NCBI GenBank assembly: GCA_964016885.1 | Contig: OZ024750.1 | Coordinates: 53,630,001 to 53,694,000 of the forward strand | Source of the DNA: Eledone cirrhosa | Taxonomy: Eukaryota | Direction: 5' to 3' | DNA: 64,000 bases | In this document: positions 1,094 through 61,976 of the stretch, in pieces | Layout of the letters: each line of letters opens with the position of its first letter | Numbering within the stretch: the stretch's first letter is position 1 | Notes under the pieces: generated by a model | Seen by the model: only the letters and a program-made list of their open reading frames with translations | What the model was told of the DNA's origin: nothing | Databases searched by the model: none | Made by a program: the position numbers and the translations under genes

Positions 1094-1531
1094 TATATCC
1101 CTGTTTGTATTTAAGATAATATTCACACTGAAAATAAAACACACAATGATGAGGATGGTGATGACAATAATAATAATTTCTAATTTCATTAATATTGGTT
1201 TCTAATAATATAACTCGAATGTGTAAAATAAAAACTGAAACAATACTTATAATAATAGGGGCTCTGGGAATGATAAAGAAAAACACAGACAAATACATAA
1301 CCAATGCTCACTACCTCCCAAATAACCGACAGTGAATACATAATTTTTGCTAGCGACCTTAATGGTCATGTTGGACAAAATTGTGATGGTTCACTTTTAT
1401 TTTCATTCTCCAACTGTCACTCATTCTATTTATCATTTGATAGCCTCGTACTTCCTCACTATCTTGTTTTTGTGATAGCAAATAAATACATGTTGTCAAT
1501 TATTATATATGTGTATTGTATTATATTGCAG

Positions 1532-1609
1532 GACGGGCTTGATGTAATGGTGAATGTGCCAAAGAAAGCTAATGATGCAATGCATTTAAGCATGTTAGAA
1601 GGTTTAGAG
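1532..1609 (+). CDS. trio: Trio/Kalirin RhoGEF exon: end of DH1 and DH-PH linker (DGLDVMVNVPKKANDAMHLSMLEGLE)
   Basis: ttgcAG acceptor and GTaagt donor, 78 nt, phase 0/0. The peptide matches the Trio/Kalirin motif DGLEVMLSVPKRANDAMHLSMLEG. Confidence 0.95.
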
Positions 1610-2516: not shown

Positions 2517-2699
2517 GATAATTTAGAAGCGTTAGGTGAAGTACTTTTACAAGATAACTTTACAGTTTGGGAACCAAAGAACTTGATTAAGAAAGGAAGA
2601 GAAAGACGTATCTTTTTATTTGAGATGTGTCTGGTGTTTGCTAAAGAGATTAAAGACAGTAATGGAAAATCAAAATATATGTATAAAAGCAAGTTACTT
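2517..2699 (+). CDS. trio: Trio/Kalirin exon: N-terminal part of PH1 (DNLEALGEVLLQDNFTVWEPKNLIKKGRERRIFLFEMCLVFAKEIKDSNGKSKYMYKSKLL)
   Basis: ttgcAG / GTaagt, 183 nt, phase 0/0. Strong similarity to the Trio PH1 motif KGRERHLFLFE...KYLYKSKL. Confidence 0.96.
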
Positions 2700-6222: not shown

Positions 6223-6324
6223 ATTTCAGAAATTAATATAACTGAACATATAGAAGGTGATGAATGTAAGTTTGCACTTTGGACAGGAAGAGCACCAATT
6301 TCCGATTACAGAATAATTTTGAAG
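6223..6324 (+). CDS. trio: Trio/Kalirin exon: middle of PH1 (ISEINITEHIEGDECKFALWTGRAPISDYRIILK)
   Basis: ttatAG / GTatgt, 102 nt, phase 0/0. Matches Trio TSELGVTEHVEGDPCKFALWVGRTP. Not in the ORF track; translated by hand. Confidence 0.95.
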
Positions 6325-9620: not shown

Positions 9621-9766
9621 GCATCGTCACTGGATACAAAACAACAATGGGTGAAGAAGATGAGAGAGTTAATCCAAGAACGTCTTGTCTATATGCACTC
9701 GGCCTTGAAGGAGCCTCTCACGAAGTCTGTAGCGGCACCAAAGATGTTTATCAACAGAACAAGTCG
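9621..9766 (+). CDS. trio: Trio/Kalirin exon: PH1 C-terminal helix (ASSLDTKQQWVKKMRELIQERLVYMHSALKEPLTKSVAAPKMFINRTS-R)
   Basis: ttgtAG / GTaagt, 146 nt, phase 0/2. Matches Trio ASSIENKQDWIKHIREVIQER...ALKEP. Confidence 0.93.
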
Positions 9767-12701: not shown

Positions 12702-12831
12702 GGATATGGAAAGTGACACAGCATCTTTAGATGAAGTCCACATTGAACGTCGCGCTAGTCTTGTGTCAGTGAACTCCAACACCACCACTGCCACAACGGA
12801 CAGTAGCAGTAGCAGTGGCAGCAGCAACAGA
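12702..12831 (+). CDS. trio: Trio/Kalirin exon: Ser/Thr-rich linker before SH3 (R-DMESDTASLDEVHIERRASLVSVNSNTTTATTDSSSSSGSSNR)
   Basis: tgtcAG / GTaagt, 130 nt, phase 2/0. It completes the split codon CG|G from the previous exon, and its position corresponds to the vertebrate R-DGEDLDS...DSDK exon. Confidence 0.85.
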
Positions 12832-25423: not shown

Positions 25424-27649
25424 TGGCAGTATCGGTAAAGAGTCGGACAACATGCTTCATGGCCTAGAGTTATGGCCCTTTATATTCTGAGTTCAAATCC
25501 CGCTGATGTTTTGATCCTTACAGGGTCGAAAAATAAAGTACCAGTAATGCCCTTGGGTTGATTTAATCAACTTTCCCTCCCCCCAAATTGTTGGCCTTGT
25601 GCCTAAATCAGAAATCATTATTATTATATATAAATGGCCTACTTTCCAGTGATTACTGACTGCTTTTCTGGAACTCTCTCGCTCTCTTGGGTCAGTAATA
25701 GATTTTGTAGTAAAGTAGAGGAAATTAGTTATTATTAGCATATAGGACACACTGAATTACAGTATTTCCTTGTTTCTCTTGGTCCCTGCGTTCTCAGTTC
25801 AAATCCCTCCAGGGCCAACTATGCCTTTTTATCCGTTCAAGTAAATACAGAATCCATCTAGAAGTGTTTGATTGGTGGAATTGTTAAAGATTTGGACAAG
25901 ATGCTTTGTGGTGTCTTATCCAGCTCAGTTCTAGATTCAAATCCTGTCTTTGTTTTGCCAGGAGATACAATCAGCAATGGAAAAACCAAGAGAAATAGTT
26001 TCTTTGGTTCTATCAGAGAATCAACTTTCACCCTTCCTTACTGCTAGCCATCACTCTCTTTCCCCCTCCTTGACATCTATTAGCACCACCAAGGTATCCA
26101 TCATTTATCACCCATCTTTCTGGCTATCACATCCCATTACTCATTCTAATTTAGTTTCTTTACACTAACAGCCAGCATTTAACAATTACTCTCTCTTCTC
26201 CTCTCTGTTTTTAAAGGATATGTAAAATATAAATGTGTAAGGCTTATTGGTTAGGGTATTTGGCTGACAATAATGAGGTCATATGTTTGATTCCTAGTGG
26301 TGTATTGTGTCCTTAAACAAGATATTTCATTTCATGTTGTTCCAGTCCACTCAACTGGCAAAAATGAGTAGCTGTAATTTGAAAGGCCAGCCTTCTCACA
26401 TTCTGTGTCACACTGAACTACATTAAGAGTATATGTCTCTGTGAAATGCTCAGTCACTTACAGGTTAATTTCTTGAGCTGATTGTTCTGTTGATTGAATC
26501 AACTGGAACTGACAGAAAGCATATATCTAATGTATCTGTGTATATCTGATATATTTGGAGAGATGTTAAAAGCCCTGACTATGAACAACAATCACACCAT
26601 TTCATATTTTGCTTATCTATGAAAGATCTAATGTTTGTGTTGTTCATGTATATCATTAGAATGGTTTAATGTATATGAACAGTACCCCACCTTAAAACAG
26701 ATGGTGTAAGGAAGATAGCCAACAAACCTCTCCTAGAATACATCATTTTAATTGCAGTTCTATTTGAATCATTTATTCGCCACATCCCACACTCACAGAC
26801 ATGGCTGTACAGTTAAGGAGTTTACTTTTCAACAACATCGTTTCTGATTCAGTCCCACTGTGTGGCATTAAAGACTTGAGTTGACTAATGCTTTGTGAAT
26901 GAAAGTTGGTAGATGGAAACATATATATGTGCATATGTTTGTATTTGTATGTCCAGTAACTTAGCAGTTCAACTAAAAGAAGTCAATAAAATTAGCACCA
27001 GACTGAAACCAGTAAAACAATTGAAGAATAAAAGGTCAAGCTGATTTGTTTTGGGTTAAATAGAAAAAATTATTGATTTCCTTTTCTACTGTTTCTGAGT
27101 TCCATCCAGACACAATGGGAATCTTTCTCTCTAAATACACAACACCAGCAGTCTTCCCAGCACACCTTGTGGATCTTCTTCACCCAATGTCTGTGTCTCC
27201 TACCTGGTGTGATATAGCCACTGTTGGTTGTGTGCTTGAGGTCAGCTTTACATTCACAACTAGTTTAAATGAGAGCCCCTATGATGGATCACTGGATCTG
27301 CCAGAAATAGCAGCCTAATCAACCTGAAATGACAGCCTGTAAAAGGAAGGAGTCATTAAGTCTGTCTACTCTGAATGATATAACAAGAGTTAGGTGTGAG
27401 CTTGACGTTGACATAACTTCAAAGGGAAACTATATTAGAACTCTGAATCTGACTGAAATAGCAGCCAAATCTCACTAAGACCCTTAACCTAGCATCATCT
27501 AAAAGGAAGGACACATAGTTATATGATTATACTCATAAGATATTCAGTGTTTAAAGGAAAAGGAACAAAAAACAGAGGTGGAGTGGTTTCTGTTGGAACA
27601 GCATTGATTATATAAGTCTGCTTGGGTGATCATGACTGGCTAAACATCA

Positions 27650-28448
27650 ACAACATCACTACCATCAGCACCACCACCACCAACACCACCACCAACACCA
27701 ACACTACCACCACCACCAACACCACCACCAACACTACCACCACCACCACCAACACTACCACTACCAACACCACCACCAATACCACTACCAACACCACCAC
27801 CAACACCACCAACTCTACCACCACCACTACCACCAGCAACACCACTACGACCACCAACACTTCCACCAACACCACCACCACCAACAACAACACCACCACC
27901 ACCACTACCAACACCACCACCACCACCAATAACACCATCACCACCACCAACACCACCACTACCACCACCACCAACACCACCACCACCACCAATAACACCA
28001 TCACCACCAACACCACCACTACCACCACCACCAACAACACCACCACCACCAATAACACCATTACCACCATCACCACCAACACCACCAATACCACCACCAC
28101 CAACAACAACACCACCAATACCACCACCACCAACAACAACACCACCAACACCACCACCACCAACACCACCACTACCACCACCACCAACACCACCACCAGC
28201 ACCACCACCACCACCAACAACACCACCACCACCACCAACAACACCATCACCACCAACACCACCAACAACACCACCACCACCACCAACAACACCATCACCA
28301 CCAACACCACCAACAACAACACCACCACCAACAACACCACCACCACCACCAATAACACCATCACCACCAACACCACCAACAACAACACCACCACCACCAA
28401 CAACACCATCACCACCAACAACAACACCACCACCACCAATAACACCAT
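27650..28448. repeat. (ACC)n/(AAC)n trinucleotide array
   Basis: Direct inspection. Confidence 0.95.
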
Positions 28449-28639
28449 ATCCTTTGTTCTCTGTTATCTCCCTTGTTTGGTTCTGATATATTCAGTCTGG
28501 CAATAGAAATTCAGTGTTACTGTTGTTGTTCCTGGATAGCATCAACAGAAATGTCAGTAGTGGTGGTAGTAGTAGTAGTAGCAGTAGTAGTAGCAGCAGT
28601 AGTAGCAACAGCAGTAGTTGTAGCGGTAGTAGTAGTAGT

Positions 28640-30283
28640 CAAGTAACAGTGTAGTTAGTAAGGCAATTAAGGATATGAAAACTGGGAAAGCAGCCGGTCT
28701 GTCAGGAATAGTTGCTTAGATGCTGAAAGCATCTGGGTCAGTTGGACACACCATGACGACATGTATTGTTATCCAGGTAATACTAGATGGCGTCATACCA
28801 TATGCCCTCTTCCTTGTGAGACAGTTACGGGAAAAGTACCTAGGTAAAAGTAAGCCTCTCTACCTAGCATTTATTGATCTGGAGAAAGCTTTCAACAGCG
28901 TGCCCCATGACATAATTTGGTGGGCTCTTAGAAAACTAGGAGTAGATGAGTGGCTTGTGAAGGCTGTACAAGACATGTATAGAGGAGCACTCAGCAAAAT
29001 CAGGATTAACAATGACTATAGCAAGGAATTTAGTGTACAAGTGGGCATTTGCCAGGGCTCTGTTCTTAACCCTCTCTTGTTATTGTTTTGCAGGCTATAA
29101 CAGAAGAGTTTAAGACTGGCTGCCAATGGGAACTTCTGTTCACGGATGATCTTACACTCATTGCTGAATTTAGCCATGTATAGAGGAGCAGTCAGCAAAG
29201 TTAGGGTTAGCAATGACTATAGCGATGAATTTAGCATACAGGTCGGTGTCCACCAGGGCTCTGTTCTTAGCCCTCTCCTGTTCATCATAGTTCTGCAGGC
29301 AATAACGGAGGAGTTTAAGACCGGATGCCCATGGAAACTCCTATATGCAGATGATCTTGCACTTATAGCAGAATCTATGGTGGAACTAAAGAAATTCCAA
29401 ACATGGAAGCAGGGCCTAGAAACAAGGGGTCTTAAAGTCAACCTGACAAAGACTAAGGTTCTTGTAAGTAGAGGAGAAAATAGAACCCAGATCCCCTCAG
29501 GGAAATGGCCTTGTTCAGTAAGTAGAAAAGGCATTGATAGAAACTCCATCCCCTGCCCTATATGCAAACTGTGGGTACACAAGAGATGTAGTGGGATCTC
29601 AGGAAGTTTAGCTAAGAATGTAGGCTTTACATGAAGCAGTTGCACTGGAATATTAAGCAGCAAACAAGTACTATCAAATTCTCTGTAGAAACAGTAGACA
29701 GCTTCTGCTACTTAGGTGACCAAAATAGCAACAGTGGTGGGTGTTCTGAAAGTACAGTAGCCAGAGTAAGAATGGGATGGAAGAAGTTCAGTTAGCTACT
29801 ACCACCGCTGGCTACAAAAGGCTTCTCCCTCAGAATGAAAGGCAGACTGTATGATGCGTGCGTACATACAGCTATATTGCATGGTAGTAAGACTTGGGCG
29901 CTGTGTGCAGAAGACTTGTGTAGATTGGAAAGAAATGAAGCCTGCATGCTCCGATAGATGTGTAATTGTAATATACGAGAACAGCAAAGCATAAATGATC
30001 AAATGTTGTGTGCAGGAGTATGTTGTTGCATTGGTATGGACATGTGTTGCGTATGAAGGATGACAGTTGGCATGAGGTGATAAAAGCCAACCTTGTCCAA
30101 TTGCACCTCTCAAATGCAATGATACAGGACCGGGATCTCTGGCAATACACAGTAATACAGAAACCCAACTTCCCACGTGCACAAACTGAAGCATTTATAC
30201 AGTATGCCCCACACCAACCCCCTCCCATACACACACCCCATGCTAGCGTGGAAAATGGACTTAAAGACAGAGGTGATGATGAT
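28640..30283 (+). mobile_element. Degenerate RTE LINE with internal deletions and a duplicated RT segment. An extra 3'UTR piece lies at about 30340-30548
   Basis: FIDLEKAFN, QGSVLSPLLF, LLYADDL and WPCSVS motifs, with a (GAT)n tail. Confidence 0.9.
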
Positions 30284-30750: not shown

Positions 30751-30857
30751 ACCCGCTTGCAACACAAACCACCAAATCCTGTCACTCCACTCTGTCTTCA
30801 GCTACAACAGTCCTCACCCTTCATTATTCCTTGCCTCTTCAACTAATATATTTCTTT

Positions 30858-30891
30858 ATGTAGTAGTAGTAGCAACAGCAGTAGTAGTAGT

Positions 30892-30923
<32 letters not shown>

Positions 30924-31002
30924 CTGTAGCAGCAGTAACAGTAGTAGTAGTAGCAGCAGTAGCAGTAGTAGTAGCAGTAACAGTAGTAGTAGTAGTAGTA
31001 GT

Positions 31003-31057
<55 letters not shown>

Positions 31058-31420
31058 TGTATGTATTGTTCTAGGTAAACTGCAAATGTCAAAATATGAC
31101 ATCTGAAGGCAAGCAAAGATCATCTCAGAAAAACCCTGGTGTTGTGGTGGTGGTGTTGTGGAGGTGTTGTGGAGGTGTTGTGGTGGTAGTAGTGTTGTGG
31201 TGGTGTTGTGGTGGTAGTGGTGTGGTGGTGGTGGTGGTGTTGTGGTAGTGGTGTTGTGCTGGTAGTGGTGTGGTGGTGGTGTTGTAGTGGTGGTGGTAGT
31301 GTTGTGGTGGTGGTGGTGGTAGTGAGGGTGTGTTGGCAGTGGTGTTGTGGTGTTGCTATTGTTGGTGGTGTTGTTGTAGTGGTTGTTGTGGTGGTGGTAG
31401 TGGTGGTGGTGTTGTTGTGA
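30858..31420. repeat. (AGT/AGC)n and (GGT/TGT)n microsatellites
   Basis: Direct inspection. Confidence 0.9.
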
Positions 31421-32260
31421 TGGTCAGACTTTTACTGAAACCTGTATAGTTTTCTAGACCGACCAGTAGTTTCCAAACATATTTTGTTACAGAATCAGGC
31501 TAGTTAATCTGGTAGAGCACTGGACATTTGTTGAATGACTTAGCCATTCTCAGTTCAAATTCCACCAAGTTTAACTAAGAATGACTTAGTCATTCTCAGT
31601 TCAAATTCCACCAAGTTTAACTAAGAATGACTTAGCCATTCTCAGTTCAAATTCCACCAAGTTTAACTATACCTTTCATCCTTTTGTGGTCAGTAAACTA
31701 TAGTACCAGTCAAGTATCTAGATCAATATAATTGACTTTCCCTTCTACCAAATAATTTCTGGTCTTGTGTCAAAATTAGACACCATTTTGGTAGATAATT
31801 ACTGTGAGTCTGTCCTACCTATATAGCACACCTCCATCTCTATTCTACTTAATGAGACCTTCACCTCCATTCTACTTAACACCTTCACCGCCATCCTACT
31901 TAATGACACCTTTGCATCTATCGTACCTATATAGCACACCTCCATCCTTTACATACCTGTTGCTTTCTGTACTAATTAGAACACACCTTTTCATAATCTT
32001 GTCATCTCCAACACCTACTCTTCCTGGAAATTGAAACCCAGAGAGCTAAGTTAGCCTCATGAACGTTGGTTGGTGGTTTAGAATCCTGTTAGGTGTCTTC
32101 ACTGATGAAAACTTGCCAAATTTACCTGGTGACTTGATTACAAGTGTGTTAGAATAGACATCTTTATCTATTGTCTCTGTGTGGGTGTCTCTGTACCTGT
32201 CAACATGTGTGTGTGTGAATCCCTGTCTGTGTATGGATGCCTGTGTGTGTGAGTACGCAG

Positions 32261-32320
32261 GTGCAGGGTGTGAAGGCGAGGGGCAGGTCTAAGGGCCCAA
32301 TACTATGGTTCTATGTGTAG
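32261..32320 (+). CDS. Candidate alternative terminal exon of the Trio/Kalirin gene (VQGVKARGRSKGPILWFYV*)
   Basis: cgcAG acceptor, phase 0 compatible with the donor after 12831, 19 codons then TAG, ends in hydrophobic F-Y-V. The polypyrimidine tract is weak. Confidence 0.45.
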   Translation: MQGVKARGRSKGPILWFYV

Positions 32321-32494
32321 CCCCCCCCCCCTACTGCATTTGCTTTGTCTGAGGGACTATGATTCTTATGGCAACCCTAGCAATACCAGGTATCGGCATA
32401 CTGGTTGGGGGGGCGGGGTCCCACTGGGTCTAGGGGCGCAGTACTGCGGTTGTGTATATAGGGGCCTTAGTGTATTGCTTTGCCCAGAGGTCCT

Positions 32495-34925
<2,431 letters not shown>

Positions 34926-35958
34926 TGTTGCTTTTCTTTTGCCATCATAGTGACAGTTGACATCACCATCATCACCAAGATGTTGTTGTGGTTGTAGTAG
35001 TGAAAAAAAAACAACCTTCCAACCAGAATGTAGTGGAATACTTGTTATAACTTTAGTGTCTTTAGTCTGTCACATACTCTCACATATTTTGCTTTTCTTT
35101 CCTCCTCCTCCTCCTCCTCCTCCTTATCCCCCCTCCTGTCTTCATGTTGTTGTGATAGTAAGTAGTAAGAGAGTTTTACTGTATGTAGACGTGGTATTTA
35201 TCCATTTAATTCTATTCCTTCTCTCTATAATATTTAACATATCTTTACTCCAGACCATCATCTTCAACATCTTCACACTAGTAAGTAAATAATCATTTGT
35301 CCCATTATAGGAGAAATATCTGTCTTTCTCTCTCTATTTGACATATCTTAACTTCATCTTGCTCTCATCTTCATTTTCCTCATTTCCTCCTCATCATATT
35401 CTTGATGCTAGTAAATCTTTATCTGTCCTATTAGAAAGAGAGATGCCTGTCTTTCTTTGGTCTCTCTCTGTCTGACATCTCCTTACATCATCTTACTTCT
35501 CCTCCTCATCTCCACCACTTCAGTAAATCTCCATTTGTCCCATCAGAGATGTATGTCTGTCTTTAACACATTCCTATTGATTATATTTTATTGACTTTGT
35601 CAATAATGTTTACTTCATCTGCTTTGCTTTCCTCTGTTAGCAACAAACTGATTGATTTGTGAGCACCCTCATCATTGTCAGCTGCTAAAATATTATTATT
35701 ATTTAACAAAAGGTAAATAAAACTTTCTCAAGACAAAGAAAGAAAAAGATGAGCTTAAAAATAAAAAGTGGAAGAGAGAGAGTTCTTTACAGATGCACTT
35801 TGGAACGAGATAAAATGTTATTGTGTTCTTGTTGAGTTATATCACTCGGCAAACAACTTTTGGTATCAGACTACACTGGAATCTATCACCAGATTGGATA
35901 TTTTATTGATTTTTTCCCCCCTCATTCCAAAACAGGATGACTGTTTAATATTTTGGGC

Positions 35959-36048
35959 ATGTTGCTTTTCCGTTTATTACATTGGAAACAAAAAATCCGA
36001 GATAAAAGACGCTCGGAGAGCTATGATGGTACTACTAGTGATGTTGTG
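35959..36048 (+). CDS. Candidate alternative start exon of a Trio/Kalirin isoform lacking GEF1 (MLLFRLLHWKQKIRDKRRSESYDGTTSDVV)
   Basis: ATG in ggcATG context, 30 codons, GTG|GTatgt donor in phase 0, located in non-repetitive sequence. Confidence 0.55.
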
Positions 36049-38009
36049 GTATGTTTCTTTTATATATTTTCAATAATGAAATATATTTGCATTCATCAAT
36101 TAACACTAATTTAATCATTAACAATGCTGTATATACTTGTATATAAGTTGGACCTGTTTTAAAGCTATTTACTAGAGCAAGGGTTGACTTCATAGTAATC
36201 GTAGGGTCCTTTTTTGTCAAACTTTTACAGACACATACTTTTCCACTAATGTTTGAATTTTCCCTTTTATTATTATATTTCTAATGAAAATGATCAAGAA
36301 TTTTAAGGAATTTAGTAATACAACTTTCTTATTTTTTATGAGGCATTTGAAACATAAAGGTTTTACATAAAATTATGAGTGAAGGTTTTTAGATAAATAA
36401 AATAAACAGCTTTGTATTGTAGAAATAGGGGTGGTTTTAGACAGTTTGGCATCAAAAGGGTTCATTAATGCTAAATGTGAACATGTATGTATGTATACAT
36501 GCATGCAAGTTACACTTTTTTCCATGAAAATACAACTACTATTTTAAAGTTATTTTTCTTGTTAGAACAGGAATTAACTTTGCATGCACCATGATAGGTT
36601 TCATACTCATAATAGGGTCCTTTTTTAGGCAAAGCTTTACAGTGGGATGCCCTTCCTGGTGCTACCCTATTTAGCTGACATGAAAAATATAATGTGGAAG
36701 ACTGTGACTTAGTGGGCTTACGAAACCTTCATTCAAAATATATGGTTCATTGTAAATGTATGTCAAATAAAGAAGTGACTTATACAAGTACATATATACC
36801 TTAAACAAAGACAAGGTTAACCCTTTTAGTGTGAAACCACCTGAAACTACCCCTAGTTCCACTATGTCTGTTTCAAAGTGTTTATGTTTATCTAATAACC
36901 TATCATAATTTTATGTAAGAACTTTTGTTAAGTTGCGTTCCAAGCACTAGATTAATAATGCAAAAGTCATATTACTAAATCACTCCAAGTTTGATTATTT
37001 TCATATTTATTTGTAAATGAGAGTCATCTTGTGTAACCCTTTCCATCCCAAACTCTGTGAAACTACTGTAGGTTCTATGATACAAAGCAGTTTATTTTAA
37101 ACCTTCCATCATAATCTTATATAAAAAACATTTAAGTTATGCTCCAAATACCAGCTTCATTATGAGGTTAGTTATATTATTAAATCTGTCCAAATTCTTT
37201 ATTATTTTTGAAAATATTTAAAAATCACAGTCTGATTCTGTCATTAGAAATATGGTAATGAAAGAGTTAATGAAAAAGTTTTTACTTAATTTTGTGTGAA
37301 TGTTTTAAACTTTAGAAAGTATAATTTTCTCAACAATGTTGTAGTTAAAATTTACTACACCACTACCAGCACTATCATAATCATCATCTAAATTGTGTGA
37401 AGTTCCCAGTATTGAAATTGCAAGCCTGTTTTCTTATTATTCTCAGAATTGACTGATTTTCATTAAAACTTTTGGATAAACACCACAGGCCCATAACATG
37501 TATAGTCTGTAGGTCATTATTTAAATTGTGGTCAGTTTACCTATTATTCTTCAAGTCAGTAAAACAGCTTGACCTAGTGGTTAGGATATTGAGCTGATGA
37601 ATAAGGCCATGGGTTGATTCCTGGTCTAGGTGACACATTGTGTTTTTGAGCAAGATACTTCATTTCACATTGCCTTTTATGACATGACTGGAATGTCTAT
37701 CATTAAAACACCTGAGAAACCTTTTATGAGATGAAACCTACACATCTGTGAGCTGTAAATTTATTCTTTTTTCATTAAGAACCAGTGAAGTACTTAATGG
37801 TGTCAATAAAATTAACATTACCCTGCTTCCTAAAATTGTGTGGATCTCTGCCTATATAGGACACAATACTGGGTGTTTGCTATTTGGAATGTTACCAGGT
37901 ATTCACAAACTTCTCTGCCAGTCATGTGACCACTGGAAGTTACACTTTGTTTTTCTATAAAGAACCAGTGCTGGTGAAAGGAGTCCATGTTGTTGAGCAA
38001 ACTCTAAAC

Positions 38010-38155
38010 AACTAGAATTAACTGGTTGGTCTACTAGTTATAACTAGAATTAACTGGTTGGTCTACTAGTTATAACTAGAATTAACTGGTTGGTCTACTA
38101 GTTATAACTAGAATTAACTGGTTGGTCTATTAGTTATAACTAGAATTAACTGGTT
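38010..38155. repeat. Minisatellite of about 33 bp, about 4.5 copies
   Basis: ACTAGAATTAACTGGTTGGTCTACTAGTTATA repeated. Confidence 0.9.
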
Positions 38156-38964
38156 CTGACAGAGCTTCTGAGACCTAATCTTTTTATATTTTTTACTGGT
38201 TTCATTCATTAGACTACTGCAATACAGCATATTGAAGGAATTTAGTCAACTATATCAAACAGTAACTATTTTTTCAATCTGGTTTTTATTTTATAAATCC
38301 CTTTTTGTCAAAGTTACAGGAGATAAACAAATACTGACATGATCTCTCTCTCTCACACACACCCACCCACACAGTTTCCTTCTACTGGATTTCACTTGGA
38401 GAGATTTAATTGATCATATTAACCCTGGTATTTATCTTTTCAAATCTAGTACATATTTTGTCTTTTTTTCAAAAGCACTAAGCTACACAGCATAAACAGG
38501 CAGAAACACACGCACATGTGCACAGAAGACATTTGTCAACCCAACGCTATTGTGGAATGGAACTCAAAACCATGTGGTTACAAAGGGAAATCTTGAACAC
38601 AGCTATGCCTGCGCCTAATTTCTGGATAACTTCCAGAAATTCTTGGTCTGGTAGTGTTGAAATAGGGGAATGAGTAGGAAAATTGTTGATTTGAGATGAA
38701 GTCTCCTGGCATAGTCCTGTTTTCATCTGGACATGATTGGCATGGTCCTGTTTTCATCTGGACATGATTGGCATGGCCCTGCTTTCATCTGGACATAATT
38801 GAGATGTGTTCAGTGACAAAACCATTCGATGCTGATTTGTAAAGGTTTGTCAATGTTTAGGCCTGGACATGGCTATGTGATTAAGGAGTTTATTTTACAA
38901 CCATGTGATTTCAAGTTCAATTTCACTTTGTGACACCTTGAATAAGTGTCTGCTACAAGTTTAA

Positions 38965-39934: not shown

Positions 39935-41845
39935 CCTGAGTAACAGAGATACAAACTGTTCCACATTGCAAGGCAGTCTGTGTGAATCATGATGTTGGGG
40001 GAAAATGTTAGAAATGACACTGGTGTATTTAGTACCACTGATGCTCAAAAGAAAGAGGCCTGGAAATGTTACCTTGGGTGTCTGATGAATATGGAGAATG
40101 AATGGGAGGAAGAGAGACTACCCCCAACCTACCCAACAGAAGGGCCAGCCAATGAATGGGAGGAAGAGAAACTACCCCCCAACCTACCCAACAAGGGCCA
40201 GCCAATGAATGGGAAGAAGAGAAACTACCCCCAACCTACCCAACAGAAGGGCCAGCCAATGAATGGGGGAAGAGAAACTACTCCCAACCTACCCAACAAG
40301 GGCCAGCCAATGAATGGGAAGAGAAACTACCCCCAACCTACCCAACAGAAGGGCCAGCCAATGAAGTTGACAGTTAAAGAGGCAATCAAAGAAATGAAGA
40401 ATGGTAAAGCTGAGGAACCATCAGAGATAGCTGCTGTGATACTAAAAACATTGGTAGAGGTAGGAGTCAAGCTAGTAACCTACATAGTCAATCAGATAAT
40501 ACAGGATGGAGTTATACCCAATGACTGATGCAGCAGTATAATTGTAAATTGCTACAAAGATAAAGGTGACACCCTAGAAAGGAGCAACTATAGAAGAATA
40601 GAACTAATGGAACAAGTTATGAAAGTGACGGAAAGCGTTATAATACAACTAATTAGAGAAAGAGTCAAATTAGTTAAGGTGCAGTTTGGTTCCATGCCTA
40701 CTTATTAGTGAGGTAACTACAAGAGAAGTTCCTAGCCAAGAATAAGCTACTATATTTAGCTTTTGTTGATCTAGAGAAGGCCTTTAAAAGAGTACCTCAA
40801 TCTATTATCTGGTGGTCCTTAAGGAAATTAGGTGTAGAAGAGTGGTAGGAGCAGTGCAAGTCATGTACAGAGGAGTTAGTAAAGTGAGGGTAGGAAATGA
40901 GTTTAGTGAGGAATTCAAGGTACAGGAGTTCATGAAGGTCCGATTCTTAGCCCACTATTATTCATTATATTTCTCCAAGCTATAACAGAGGAGTTTAAGA
41001 CTGGCTGCTCATGGGAATTTCTCTATGCAGATGATCTGGTCCTTATAGTTGAATCCATTAAAGAAGTAGAAAATAAGTTCCGACTATGGAAACAGAATTT
41101 AGAATCAAAAGACCTGAGAGTAAACTTAGCCAAAACTAAAGTGCTAGTGACAGAAAATAGGACCCTGCTCAATATGTAAACATAAACTCCATACGATGGA
41201 CACAGTGTAAATCTTGGGTGCACAAGAGATGTGGGATAACGAGTAAGCCAACAGGAAGGGAAGATTTTGTTTGTAGAGGATGCACAGGAGTAACCGAGGG
41301 TAAGAAAGCCAGTGATTTAAACCTATTCCAGTCAGAGGAAAGACCCATAAAAGTGGTTGATAGCTTCTGCTATCTAGGCAATGTAATTAGCAATGTAGAG
41401 GAGTGCTCTGAGAGCATAAGGATAGAATGGGAAAAGTTGAGAGAGCTCCTCCCACTGTTGACCACAAATGGTTTCTTCCTACATTCAAAAGGACAATTGT
41501 ATGACGCCTGTGTACGAAGTACGGTGCTGTACGGTAGTGAAATATGGGTTGTGACTGCAGAGGACGTGTAGACTGGGGAGAAATGAAGCAACCGTGTGCA
41601 GAATAGAAGACTGTTGGTATGGACATGGACAATGGCTGTTGGGTGAAGAAATGCCAGTGGAAGGATGTCACAGTAGAAGTAGTCCAGGAAAGACCTAGAC
41701 AAATGTTGTAAGAGATGACCTCAAATCATTGAGACTCACAGAGGAGATGACAAAGGATCACAACGAGTGGAGTAATGCCATGCTGAGAAGGACCCACCAA
41801 TCCATCCAAGCATGGAAAAATGGAGTAAAAACAATGAGGATGATT
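39935..41845 (+). mobile_element. Old degenerate RTE LINE with an internal tandem expansion of about 55 bp (40097-40362)
   Basis: KEAWKCY, AIKEMKNGKA, FVDLEKAF and YADDL motifs, with many stops and frameshifts. Confidence 0.9.
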
Positions 41846-44018: not shown

Positions 44019-46370
44019 TGTGGTTAGAAAAAGCTATCTCACTTACCGCTTTTCATAGGCGCGGCTAAATCCCATGGCTGATTTCTCCTCTTCCACGTGC
44101 GTCCAACTCGTTAACACCCGGGAGCTGCCAAAACTAGCGTCCACACCGTTCCTGGTCACTACTATAGAGAGACCGATCTGCTGGCCCTTCTGGTCGAGCA
44201 CTCTTCTGGTCAAGCACTCTTCCGGTCGAGCATTCCCCAGCTTCCAGCCACCGCATGCCACACCATACCCACATGCGCCCCCTGATCTCAAGGATCAATT
44301 TCCCCCTCATCCTTCTGCATATGAAAGTCTGCTGTCCAGGTTGGTGGTTTGCGACTCCTTTGCGATCTCCACAGTATTGGGGCGGCACTTTGAGTTTCCG
44401 ATTCCTCAGAGTCCGTTGACACAGTGATTCTACGGACATCCAGGACATGACGTGGTACTCCGTCCACGGACACATTGTTCTGGGAATTTACGGCCGTCAC
44501 CGTTCCTCTTCCCCATTGAGATGTGCAACGTGCATCTGGGGGCTTATCCCAGACTTTTTCGCCCACCTGCACAACTGCATTCTCTCTCCCCACTGGCCGT
44601 TGTGGTGGCGTGCACGGGTGCCGCCACTCGTATCTGAATACTGCTCTGTGTGGCACCGATTCTTCAACCTGTCCCACCCGAGGGGACATGTACCAGAACA
44701 CTGCCTCCATTGGTGAGATACGGCCCCGCTCCGCCATAGCCTTGATCGTCCGGTGGTGTTGCTCCACAATTCCATTCCCGCTCGGCCTGTGCGCTACTCT
44801 GAAGAAACGGTCCACCTTCCATCCATCAAGCATCTCCCTCAGCGCCTCCGAGCGGAATGCTGCGCTGTTGCCCATCAGTAGTTCGTCCACAGGGCCCCGC
44901 TCCAAGAACACCTCTCTCAATGTCCGCATGATTTCCTCGGCTGTTCCAGTCTTCATCTCCCTCCATATCGCCATCCGTCCTGGTCCACAGTCGACCATCG
45001 AGAGGTACGTTCCCTGCCGGTAGTGCATTACATCCACTGCCAATCGCTTCCAGTCGCGATCATCCGGGAAGCTTCCCGTTTCGTGCACACCCGGGGCGGG
45101 ATCAATGGACTGACATCGGACGCAGCCTATAACCACCCTTTGAACACTGTGTCTGTTAACGTCCGAGTCGATTCTCCTGGCTAGGAGCAGGGTCCTATCC
45201 ACTCCCATGTTGTTCATGTCATGCAACCCTTTCAGATCCGACTCGGTCAGCCGACACACGGCAGCTATCTCATCTTCTACCTCCTCCGGCGCTTCCATCC
45301 AGGCTTTCTTCACCCTGGTTAAGACGTCCGCCCTATTTTTCTCTGAGGGCACGAAAACTACGCTCAGCCTCAGGTCGAACTCGGTGGCCAGGTTTCCTAA
45401 AGTTCCCAGGCGGCGCTTTATCAGTATCTCCGCTGCCCCTCTCGTTCGCACTCTCTTCTCACTGGTGAGCACTGATCTCACCCATCCAAGTATCTCCAAC
45501 GTGACACCCAGCGCTATGCTGCTGGCATCGCATCATATGGTCCCGCTCTGCGATTTGGGTACATACCAGCGTCCTCGCACTGGGTCGTCGGCCTTCACCC
45601 TCCCCACGACCTCCTGCATCATGGCCACCGTCCTCTCTCCCACTCTGTCACTCCAAGTCACTCCGCCGCGAAAATGTCAACACGTTCACCGTTCCATCTA
45701 ATTCTTGCCAGCTTAGCAAAAGTGGCTAACGGTCCCTCTGCAAACGCTTCCATCATGCGCCTCTCAATCTTTTGCACATCCCTTTGGCTGTGTTCATCCA
45801 ACTCAAGGAAGAGAACCAATGTGTCCCCCTCGACGTACAGTGCCATGAGACCAGCCACATCTTCTATCTTCTGTAAGCTTGTGACCAGCCGGACTTTTCG
45901 CAGCCAAGTGACATCGCCTTCACCGGTAAATGCCCTAATCGCTTCGCTCGTTCGTAGTCTTGTCGCCATATCCTAATTTGTCTTGCGGTACATAATAAAA
46001 AAAAAACAACAGACTTCTCTCTGTTTTTCCAGTAGCTTTGTTTTCGAGAAAGTTTTTTTTTTTTTCAATCAGATCTCAGTTTCCAATGCCGAAATAGCTT
46101 GTGGTTAGAAAAAGCTATCTCACTTACCGCTCTTCATAGGCGCCGCTAAATCCCATGGCTGGTTTCTCCTCTTCCACGTGCGTCCAACTCGTTAACACCC
46201 GGGAGCTGCCAAAACTCGCGTCCACACCGTTCCTGGTCACCACTAAGGAGAGACCGATCTGCTGGCCCTTCCGGTCGAGCACCCTTCTGGCCAAGCACCC
46301 TTCCGGTCAAGCACTCTTCCGGTCGAGCACTCCCCAGCTTCCGGCCACCGCACACCACATCATACCCACA
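44019..46370 (-). mobile_element. Internally deleted Gypsy/Ty3 LTR retrotransposon
   Basis: TG...CA LTRs at 44019-44273 and 46100-46370, 5-bp TSD GTATA, purine-rich PPT next to the 3' LTR. Retains the gag N-terminus (45658-45969), an RNase H remnant (DASSIALG) and integrase (44288-45499). Protease and RT are missing. Confidence 0.92.
44288..45499 (-). pseudogene. Gypsy integrase, probably inactive
   Basis: CVRCQ Zn-finger part, LAVDV, LLMGNSAAF (second catalytic D appears to be G) and SGNGIVEQHHRTIK. Confidence 0.85.
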
Positions 46371-59768: not shown

Positions 59769-60584
59769 TATATATATATATATATATTATGTGTGTGTGT
59801 GTATGTGCGTGCATAGAAATATCTGCAGGTGTTAAAAGGAATACAGTGGTCAATCAAGAAAAGAACTGATATATTCTATATATTTATGTTCAAACACGGA
59901 ACAAAAGTGCTACCTAAACTCATATAAGCACCTGAAGATTAGGTGACAATTTTCATACATCTTGGTCAATATTGTTTCTTGAAACCTTAGGTAGCATTTT
60001 TTTCCATGTATGAACATAAATAAATAATTTATATATAGTTTTTTTCTTCTTTTCTACCACTGCCCCCTCACCTCTGTGTTTTTCTATTTCGTAATTAATT
60101 TCTCTTTTATTTTCTGATGAAGGACTAGCACCTAAAACATTAAGACTCTGCTCCTACTATATCAAACACAAAACTAAAATATTTCTTCATTGTGCTGTGT
60201 TGTTTGCTTTGTTATTTCTGTTTGCCTTCTGCATATATATATATTATAGATATATGGGATAACAAGTTATCGTTTTAGGTAATCCAGTTAGAGATTGTGA
60301 GTACTCTGTACTGTGGATAGTTTAACGTACGGCTTTGTTTGACTCAACAAGAGGCTTCCTTAGTTAGGCGGCGAGTTTGCGAGAATTCCCATGTAGTCAT
60401 TCTTGGAGTAATAGTAGTGAAAGAGTATTCCGATGATTTGATCAGAGACACACACTGTATTTAAGGTCAAGTGGCGCAATTTCGAGTGATTAGTGGCCTT
60501 TAGACTCACCTGATCAATGAAACAATTGTTAATACTGTAAATAAAACCCTTTTTGTTCAGCCGACCATGTTATATATATATATA

Positions 60585-61976
60585 TGTTAGGATTAGCAAT
60601 GAGTATAGCGAGGAATTTAACGTACAGGTTGGGGTCCACCAGGGCTCTGTTCTTAGCCCTCTCCTGTTCATCATAGTCCTGCAGGCAATAACAGAGGAGT
60701 TTAAGACCGGATGCCCATGGGAACTCCTGTATGCTGATGACCTCGCACTTATAGCTGAATCCATGGTAGAACTAGAGAAGAAATTCCAAACTTGGAAGCA
60801 GGGACTAGAAAGAAAGGGTCTCAAAGTCAACATGACAAAGACTAAGGTCCTTGTAAGTAGACGAGAAAACAGAACCCAGATCCCCTCAGGGAAATGGCCT
60901 TGCTCAGTATGTAGGAAAGGTGTAGGTAGGAACTCCATTCTCTGCCCCAAATGCAAACAATGGGTACACAAGAGATGTAGCGGGATCTCAGGAAGCTTAA
61001 TTAAGAATGTAGGCTTCACATGCAGCAGCTGTACTGGGACAGCAAGCAGCCACAGGAAACAAGTACCACCAATCTCTGGGAGGGCTCTGTAGAGACAGTA
61101 GACAGCTTCTGCTACCTAGGTGACCGAATTAGCAGCGGAGATGGGTGTTCAGAAAGTACAATAACTAGGGTAAGAACGGGATGGAAGAAGTTCAGGGAAC
61201 TGCTAGCTGCAAAAGGCTTCTCCCTCAAAATGAAAGGTAGATTGTATGATGCGTGTATCCGAACAGCAATATTACATGGTAGTGAGACCTGGGCGCTGAA
61301 GGTGGAAGATTTGCGTAGATTAGAGAGAAACGAAGCCTGCATGCTCCGATGGATGTGTAATAGTAATATATGCGAACAACAAAGCATAAATGAATTGAGA
61401 GAGAGACTGAGCATAAGAGAAATCAAATGCTGTGTGCAGGAGAGGCGATTGTGTTGGTATGGACATGTGATGCGTATGAAGGATGACAGCTGCATAAAAA
61501 GGTGCAGAGCACTAAAAGTCAATGGAAACCGCGGAGTGGGGAGACCCAAAAAGACCTGGGATGAGGTGATAAAAGCCAACCTTACCCAATTACACCTCTC
61601 AAAGGCGATGACACACGACCGTGACCTCTGGCGTCACGCAGTAATACAGAGTAGCCGTCCTCCCATGGGTACAAGCTGAAGCATATAGACATTATGCCCC
61701 CACACCCTCCCACTGCAAGGTGGTCGTGGAGGTGCCACGGCAAAAAAGCACCCAGCCCACACTGTAAAGTGGACGTGTAGGCGCCACGAAAAAGCACCCA
61801 GCACTCACTGTAAATGAGGTTGGTGTTAGGAAGGGCATCCAGCTGTAGAAATCAAGCCAAATCAGTTCCTGTATGAGCAAGGCATGGTCAGCCGACCAGA
61901 CACTGCCCACAACAGGACAACCCGTCTAACCCATGCTAGCGTGGAAGAACGGACGTAAAACGGTGATGATGATGAT
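60585..61976 (+). mobile_element. 5'-truncated RTE LINE
   Basis: QGSVLSPLLF, YADDL, intact C4HC3 insert and RRLCWYGHVMRM, then 3'UTR and (GAT)n tail. Confidence 0.94.

Follow-up and report, generated by a model that had tools for sequence, protein, structure and literature searches.

Proteins of the Trio/Kalirin type couple a Rac-activating and a Rho-activating module, and the choice of start and end exons sets which of these modules animals make. Vertebrate KALRN has an internal start exon that carries its own N-terminal peptide, and Steven et al. (2005) reportedly described the exon layout of the UNC-73 isoforms that contain RhoGEF-2 only. The locus analysed here raises the question of whether a cephalopod gene of this type can also be started from within. 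A first-pass annotation, made from the letters of a 64,000-base stretch of DNA (hereafter the window), had proposed that a short open reading frame lying in an intron ahead of the SH3 exon is the coding part of an internal first exon. The evidence presented below suggests, with a probability that we put at about one half, that this 73-kb intron contains a transcribed internal first exon which is spliced to the SH3 exon and allows translation to start at ATG 35959. The candidate is probably an internal first exon similar to those of Kalirin Duet and UNC-73.

The host gene and its 73-kb intron

The window contained exons for the GEF1 PH domain and the linker of a cephalopod gene of the Trio/Kalirin type, all on the + strand. 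Pfam was searched with 355 of the 1116 open reading frames found on both strands, namely the + strand stop-to-stop frames of at least 30 aa with an entropy of at least 3.6. Among these 355 frames, the sole Trio-type match was a SOS1/NGEF-like PH domain (PF22697, E 1.1e-15) at 2448-2756; the remaining matches were reverse-transcriptase and PHD fragments, and no SH3 or RhoGEF match was found within the window. The PH exon was 95% identical to the cephalopod Kalirin/Trio proteins P0003 and P0004, the second of which is named Kalirin/Triple functional domain protein in its source. Using both proteins as tblastn queries, five consecutive collinear exons were recovered in the window (Table 1). The last of them ended in phase 0 at 12831 (...AAC AGA/GTAAGT).

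The SH3 exon was located outside the window, at G000:C10:53716191-53716446, which is equivalent to window positions 86191-86446 (the window spans 53630001-53694000). It lay downstream of the GEF1 exons on the same strand, showed 84% identity over 69 aa and started in phase 0 (cag/TGT TCT GCA, encoding CSSDVTVV...). Searching the window with the SH3 region by tblastn returned low-complexity matches only, and the 22 kb between the end of the window and the SH3 exon contained no Trio coding piece. The intron between the linker and SH3 exons is therefore approximately 73 kb long and in phase 0 at both ends. The candidate exon is found 23 kb into this intron, on the coding strand, and its donor precedes the SH3 exon by approximately 50 kb. 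The GEF1 PH exon, the five collinear exons and the SH3 exon downstream identified the host as a Trio/Kalirin/UNC-73 gene; the placement of the candidate in a Trio/Kalirin intron before the SH3 exon, which had been proposed from the letters, was borne out by the Pfam search, the tblastn search and the location of the SH3 exon.

Table 1. Positions in the window of the host gene exons and of the elements of the candidate exon.
Feature	Position	Strand	Basis and remarks
Canonical exon, end of DH1	1526..1609	+	tblastn and splice sites; start coordinate approximate
Canonical exon, start of PH1 (SOS1/NGEF-like PH, E 1.1e-15)	2517..2699	+	Pfam, identity to P0003/P0004, tblastn
Canonical exon, middle of PH1	6223..6324	+	tblastn, splice sites; donor AAG/GTATGT
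Canonical exon, end of PH1 and start of linker	9621..9766	+	tblastn, splice sites
Canonical linker exon (RDMESD...SSSGSSNR), last before the 73-kb intron	12702..12831	+	tblastn with P0003/P0004; ends in phase 0
Upstream, probably untranslated, part of the candidate exon	35174..35958	+	X4 contigs at depth 3-5; single copy; ten upstream ATGs
Last upstream mini-ORF, ATG ACT GTT TAA	35937..35948	+	A at -3; ends 11 bases before ATG 35959
TGA in the frame of ATG 35959	35938..35940	+	direct reading; ORF 35941-36114
Predicted coding part of internal first exon, ATG and 29 codons, ending in phase 0	35959..36048	+	direct reading; X4 record 27 without mismatch
Splice donor GTATGT	36049..36054	+	match of X4 record 27 stops at 36048, followed by 30 letters from outside the aligned stretch

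Several other features were observed in the same intron. At the position of an exon previously proposed at 32261 (window 32256-32320), a phase-0 frame following cgcag/GTG ran for 19 codons (VQGVKARGRSKGPILWFYV) to a TAG at approximately 32318. This may be a terminal exon resembling that of Kalirin-7, and the first-pass annotation suggested that it might pair with the candidate as a switch between Rac-GEF and Rho-GEF transcripts. Reverse-transcriptase and RT-PHD fragments (Pfam RVT_1 and PHD) were present on the + strand at 28720-29631, 40910-41176 and 60541-61089, and a 414-aa open frame on the minus strand (44288-45532) appeared retroelement-like by eye. Long tri- and dinucleotide tracts occupied 27616-28506, 30839-31431, 32366-33746, 33818-34548 and 34786-34925; tracts of this kind (for example TGG x127 and AT x70) yielded, on both strands, frames that lack stop codons and reach 417 aa, which are artefacts for ORF finders. 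Two near-perfect minisatellites were detected at 38010-38155 (a 32-base unit repeated 4.6 times at 99%) and 38707-38801 (a 31-base unit repeated 3.1 times at 93%). The segments 36850-37340 and 37626-37740 corresponded to very high-copy repeats with many internal joints, their summed word depth reaching approximately 300,000 in the public sequencing runs X1-X3 and approximately 17,000 in run X4 (these runs are introduced below). They probably represent a family of short interspersed elements, abundant in the RNA-like run X4 as well.

Reading frame and predicted peptide of the candidate exon

The elements listed by the first-pass annotation were all present in the DNA. An ATG at 35959-35961 opened 30 codons reading MLLFRLLHWKQKIRDKRRSESYDGTTSDVV, the coding part ended at 36048, and a GTATGT donor followed directly after codon 30; a T/C-rich tract (35910-35935) ending with a CAG (35933-35935) was found upstream. 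Because the TGA at 35938-35940 closes the frame upstream, translation in the frame of the SH3 exon could start no earlier than ATG 35959. The ATG followed 18 bases after this TGA, and the frame then stayed open to the donor, reaching it in exactly the phase required by the SH3 exon. The phase match claimed for the candidate was therefore confirmed: the candidate and the canonical exon ending at 12831 both end in phase 0 and the SH3 exon accepts this phase, so that the open frame could continue into the SH3 exon. The GT at 36049 suits a donor on the + strand; reading the same letters on the minus strand would need a non-canonical AC acceptor.

The frequency of this arrangement was estimated by counting every ATG followed by at least 30 open codons and an in-frame GTRAGT or GTATGT, on both strands of the window. 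The pattern occurred 13 times on the + strand (four true Trio exons, four transposon ORFs and five others including the candidate) and 11 times on the minus strand. Taken alone, the ORF-plus-donor pattern is thus at chance level and not beyond it.

The peptide encoded by the 30 codons had been described as hydrophobic then basic, with an RRxS kinase site and a possible amphipathic membrane anchor. The hydrophobic-then-basic composition was confirmed. The kinase site was not found as a literal RRxS; the site is KRRS, with the serine at position 19, and fits [KR][KR]xS. An amphipathic helix at the N-terminus was rejected: the helical hydrophobic moment of the first 18 residues was 0.16, a value reached by 4123 of 5000 shuffled sequences.

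Protein searches provided no relative of the peptide. Comparing the 40-aa stretch encoded by 35941-36060 with proteins of 71-2000 aa returned two candidates, neither of which was scored, and no match. Among 1.84 billion representatives scanned, the single match was P0074 (E 1.2e-4), a repeat protein unrelated to Trio. When longer proteins were searched with the SH3 exon, six proteins were recovered, with no octopus Trio among them and none having a comparable start exon, a blank that says little. Two annelid gene models, P0072 and P0073, start a short distance ahead of the SH3 exon, in an unrelated sequence ending ...Q/VPSTDVWV; they were not retained as true internal starts, as their form suggests that gene predictors had read through the intron. 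A limited literature search found no print account of cephalopod Trio isoforms.

A contig break at the predicted donor

Four public sequencing runs of one study contained the locus: X1, X2 and X3 from sample S1, and X4 from sample S2. None of the four is recorded as RNA. Runs X1-X3 each held all the sampled words of 35850-36150 (share 1.00), whilst X4, a run of 88 million letters, held a share of 0.60. A run holding only the portion 35850-36048 is predicted to contain 169 of 271 words (0.62), and the independent index check therefore agreed with a sequence that stops at the donor. The segments 35170-35800 and 35800-36200 are each single copy in the 3.0-Gb genome, so the X4 contigs found over 35174-36048 come from this locus.

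Contigs of the four runs were aligned on 35130-38000 only (2871 positions). On single-copy DNA, three X4 contigs with a depth of 3-5 covered 35174-35416, 35492-35686 and 35723-36048. The last of these, record 27, is 356 letters long with a depth of 5; its letters 31-356 matched 35723-36048 without a mismatch, and the remaining 30 letters matched nothing in the aligned stretch. The match therefore broke exactly at 36048, the base before GTATGT, in agreement with the donor predicted at 36049. According to the description of Logan contigs in PMC12424806, every 31-mer of an accession is distinct and words seen once are discarded; linked contigs hence overlap by 30 letters (k=31). A run of exactly 30 foreign letters (k-1) indicates that the joined target is common to another path, and is thus shared or repeated. 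A contig leaving a unique exon for a shared one would stop 30 letters in, as would be expected if the SH3 exon were reached both from 12831 and from 36048. The junction at 36048 contains no GATC and is therefore not a Hi-C ligation. Collectively, these observations indicate that the donor at 36048/36049 was probably used in X4, one run of one study, which looks like RNA and whose library type is not recorded.

The contigs also defined the extent of the exon. Record 27 runs unbroken from 35723, which sets a minimum of 326 bases for the exon; with the further contigs reaching 35174, it is probably approximately 875 bases long, with a start at 35174 or farther upstream. At their upstream ends the X4 contigs carried no foreign letters, and nothing therefore indicates a splice from further upstream. 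Transcription would start near or upstream of 35174, bearing in mind that the aligned stretch began at 35130 and that contigs cannot show a 5′ end. Within the presumed leader, three loosely similar units of approximately 120 bases (...agtaaat...tttgtccc...ctgtctttct...) could be seen by eye at 35280-35580; they were not reported by Tandem Repeats Finder, and the genome contains this stretch once.

The main competing explanation accepts a transcribed exon with a used donor, yet considers it non-productive: it could belong to an intronic long non-coding RNA, serve as a non-coding or regulatory 5′ exon, or be spliced to a partner other than the SH3 exon, and the 30-codon frame would then be incidental. 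Ten ATGs are found in 35174-35958, the last of them, at 35937, having a good context with an A at -3 and lying 22 bases upstream of ATG 35959. The ten upstream ATGs argue for a weak, damped translation from ATG 35959. The ORFs that they open are short, however (1-28 codons), and all stop before 35959, so that ATG 35959 may be reached by leaky scanning or reinitiation. The chance frequency of the ORF-plus-donor pattern, the absence of a relative of the 30-residue peptide in the protein searches, the low depth of X4 (3-5) and the fact that the acceptor joined to 36048 was not seen would all suit a non-productive exon. Against this explanation stand the frame that runs from the TGA at 35938 through the ATG 18 bases on to the donor, in the phase of the SH3 exon, and the exactly 30 foreign letters, which imply that the joined exon has another splice partner in X4 and would suit the SH3 exon of this gene. 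We regard a non-productive exon as rather unlikely, although it is the alternative to be taken most seriously.

Another explanation dispenses with splicing altogether: the open frame would be a chance ORF in an intron, and X4 would be DNA of another individual with a repeat insertion or a rearrangement at 36048/36049. In its favour, the run is of unrecorded library type and comes from another sample (S2), transposons are abundant throughout the intron, and a contig assembled at k=31 would likewise stop 30 letters into a repeat if a transposon had inserted homozygously at this position. The depth of the repeats nevertheless points to RNA. The ratio between repeat and single-copy depth was approximately 4,000 in X4 (16,774 versus ~4) and approximately 30,000 in X1 (297,609 versus ~10); given the ratio of X1, the single-copy depth of X4 as DNA would be approximately 0.6 rather than the observed 3-5, and the removal of words seen once from Logan contigs (PMC12424806) also counts against a DNA origin. 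X4 is probably an RNA run. The break, moreover, fell on one position stated beforehand among 2871, in DNA where donor-like motifs number just 81 in 64,000 bases. Finally, X4 coverage extended over 875 bases ahead of the donor and was lacking from the single-copy bins after it, which total 1.1 kb: its depth was 0 in 36474-36665, 36954-37049, 37338-37625 and 37818-38000, where X1-X3 had approximately 5-20. Holes in coverage are not evidence by themselves, since some records were dropped from the depth tables, and X1-X3 had depth 0 in several bins of 35130-36185 despite holding all sampled words of 35850-36150. We consider a rearranged DNA template improbable.

The T/C-rich tract and CAG at 35910-35935, proposed as an acceptor for a 5′UTR exon, were not supported in this role, as record 27 starts matching at 35723 and crosses 35935 without interruption. 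A cassette exon entered at this CAG and inserted between the linker and SH3 exons was rejected as very improbable, for the same reason and for two more: coming from the phase-0 linker exon, a frame entering at 35936 leaves in phase 2 (113 bases, not a multiple of 3) and loses the SH3 frame, and the frame that leaves in phase 0 contains the TGA at 35938-35940.

Predicted product and comparison with known internal starts

If the exon is an internal first exon of a short Trio/Kalirin form, the donor at 36048 would likely join the SH3 exon 50 kb downstream, an acceptor suggested by its phase and by the form of the contig break. Translation would begin at ATG 35959 despite the ten short upstream ORFs. 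The predicted product would be devoid of Sec14, the spectrin repeats and Rac-GEF1, and would retain the SH3 domain, the Rho-GEF2 domain and anything downstream, behind a new N-terminus made of the 30-residue hydrophobic-then-basic peptide.

A broader proposition can be put forward tentatively. Within the very large intron that separates GEF1 from SH3 in their single Trio/Kalirin gene, octopods may have acquired an internal promoter and first exon of their own; the resulting SH3-RhoGEF2 form would have an N-terminus that is hydrophobic, polybasic and specific to the lineage and that carries a basophilic kinase site. Such a form would be an independent invention, convergent with the split between Rac-GEF and Rho-GEF transcripts in vertebrate Kalirin (Duet) and nematode UNC-73. 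We hold this to be possible and somewhat doubtful. If a cephalopod form without GEF1 is made, the split between Rac and Rho modules extends to molluscs with large nervous systems, and the unique 5′ exon provides a handle on Rho-only signalling through probes, knock-down or promoter-driven reporters. The analysis also indicates that public assemblies can be used to check a start exon proposed from sequence letters alone, by looking for a contig break at the predicted donor. The understanding of the Trio/Kalirin family as a whole is left unchanged by the candidate exon.

Internal starts that drop GEF1 are already known from mammals and worms. According to PMC11630257, human KALRN DUET has several intragenic start sites, which remove everything through GEF1, and the GTEx models discussed there place at least some of them after exon 45. 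The Duet promoter of mouse Kalrn, described in PMC3541206, is an intragenic precedent. The same article presents UNC-73 as the single invertebrate Trio/Kalirin orthologue and cites work in C. elegans in which UNC-73 splice variants resembling Kal Duet 9 act in muscle and neurotransmission.

The octopus candidate resembles Kalirin Duet in being internal, and it lies in the intron after the GEF1 linker exon. Human DUET has several starts, and because the GTEx models place at least some of these after exon 45, any orthology between the octopus intron and a vertebrate one is putative. The likeness to the UNC-73 isoforms that contain RhoGEF-2 only is one of description, in that the octopus exon would give a short GEF2-type form. 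Without claiming common descent, we propose by analogy, and on present evidence, that the octopus exon would work like the internal starts of Kalirin Duet and UNC-73.
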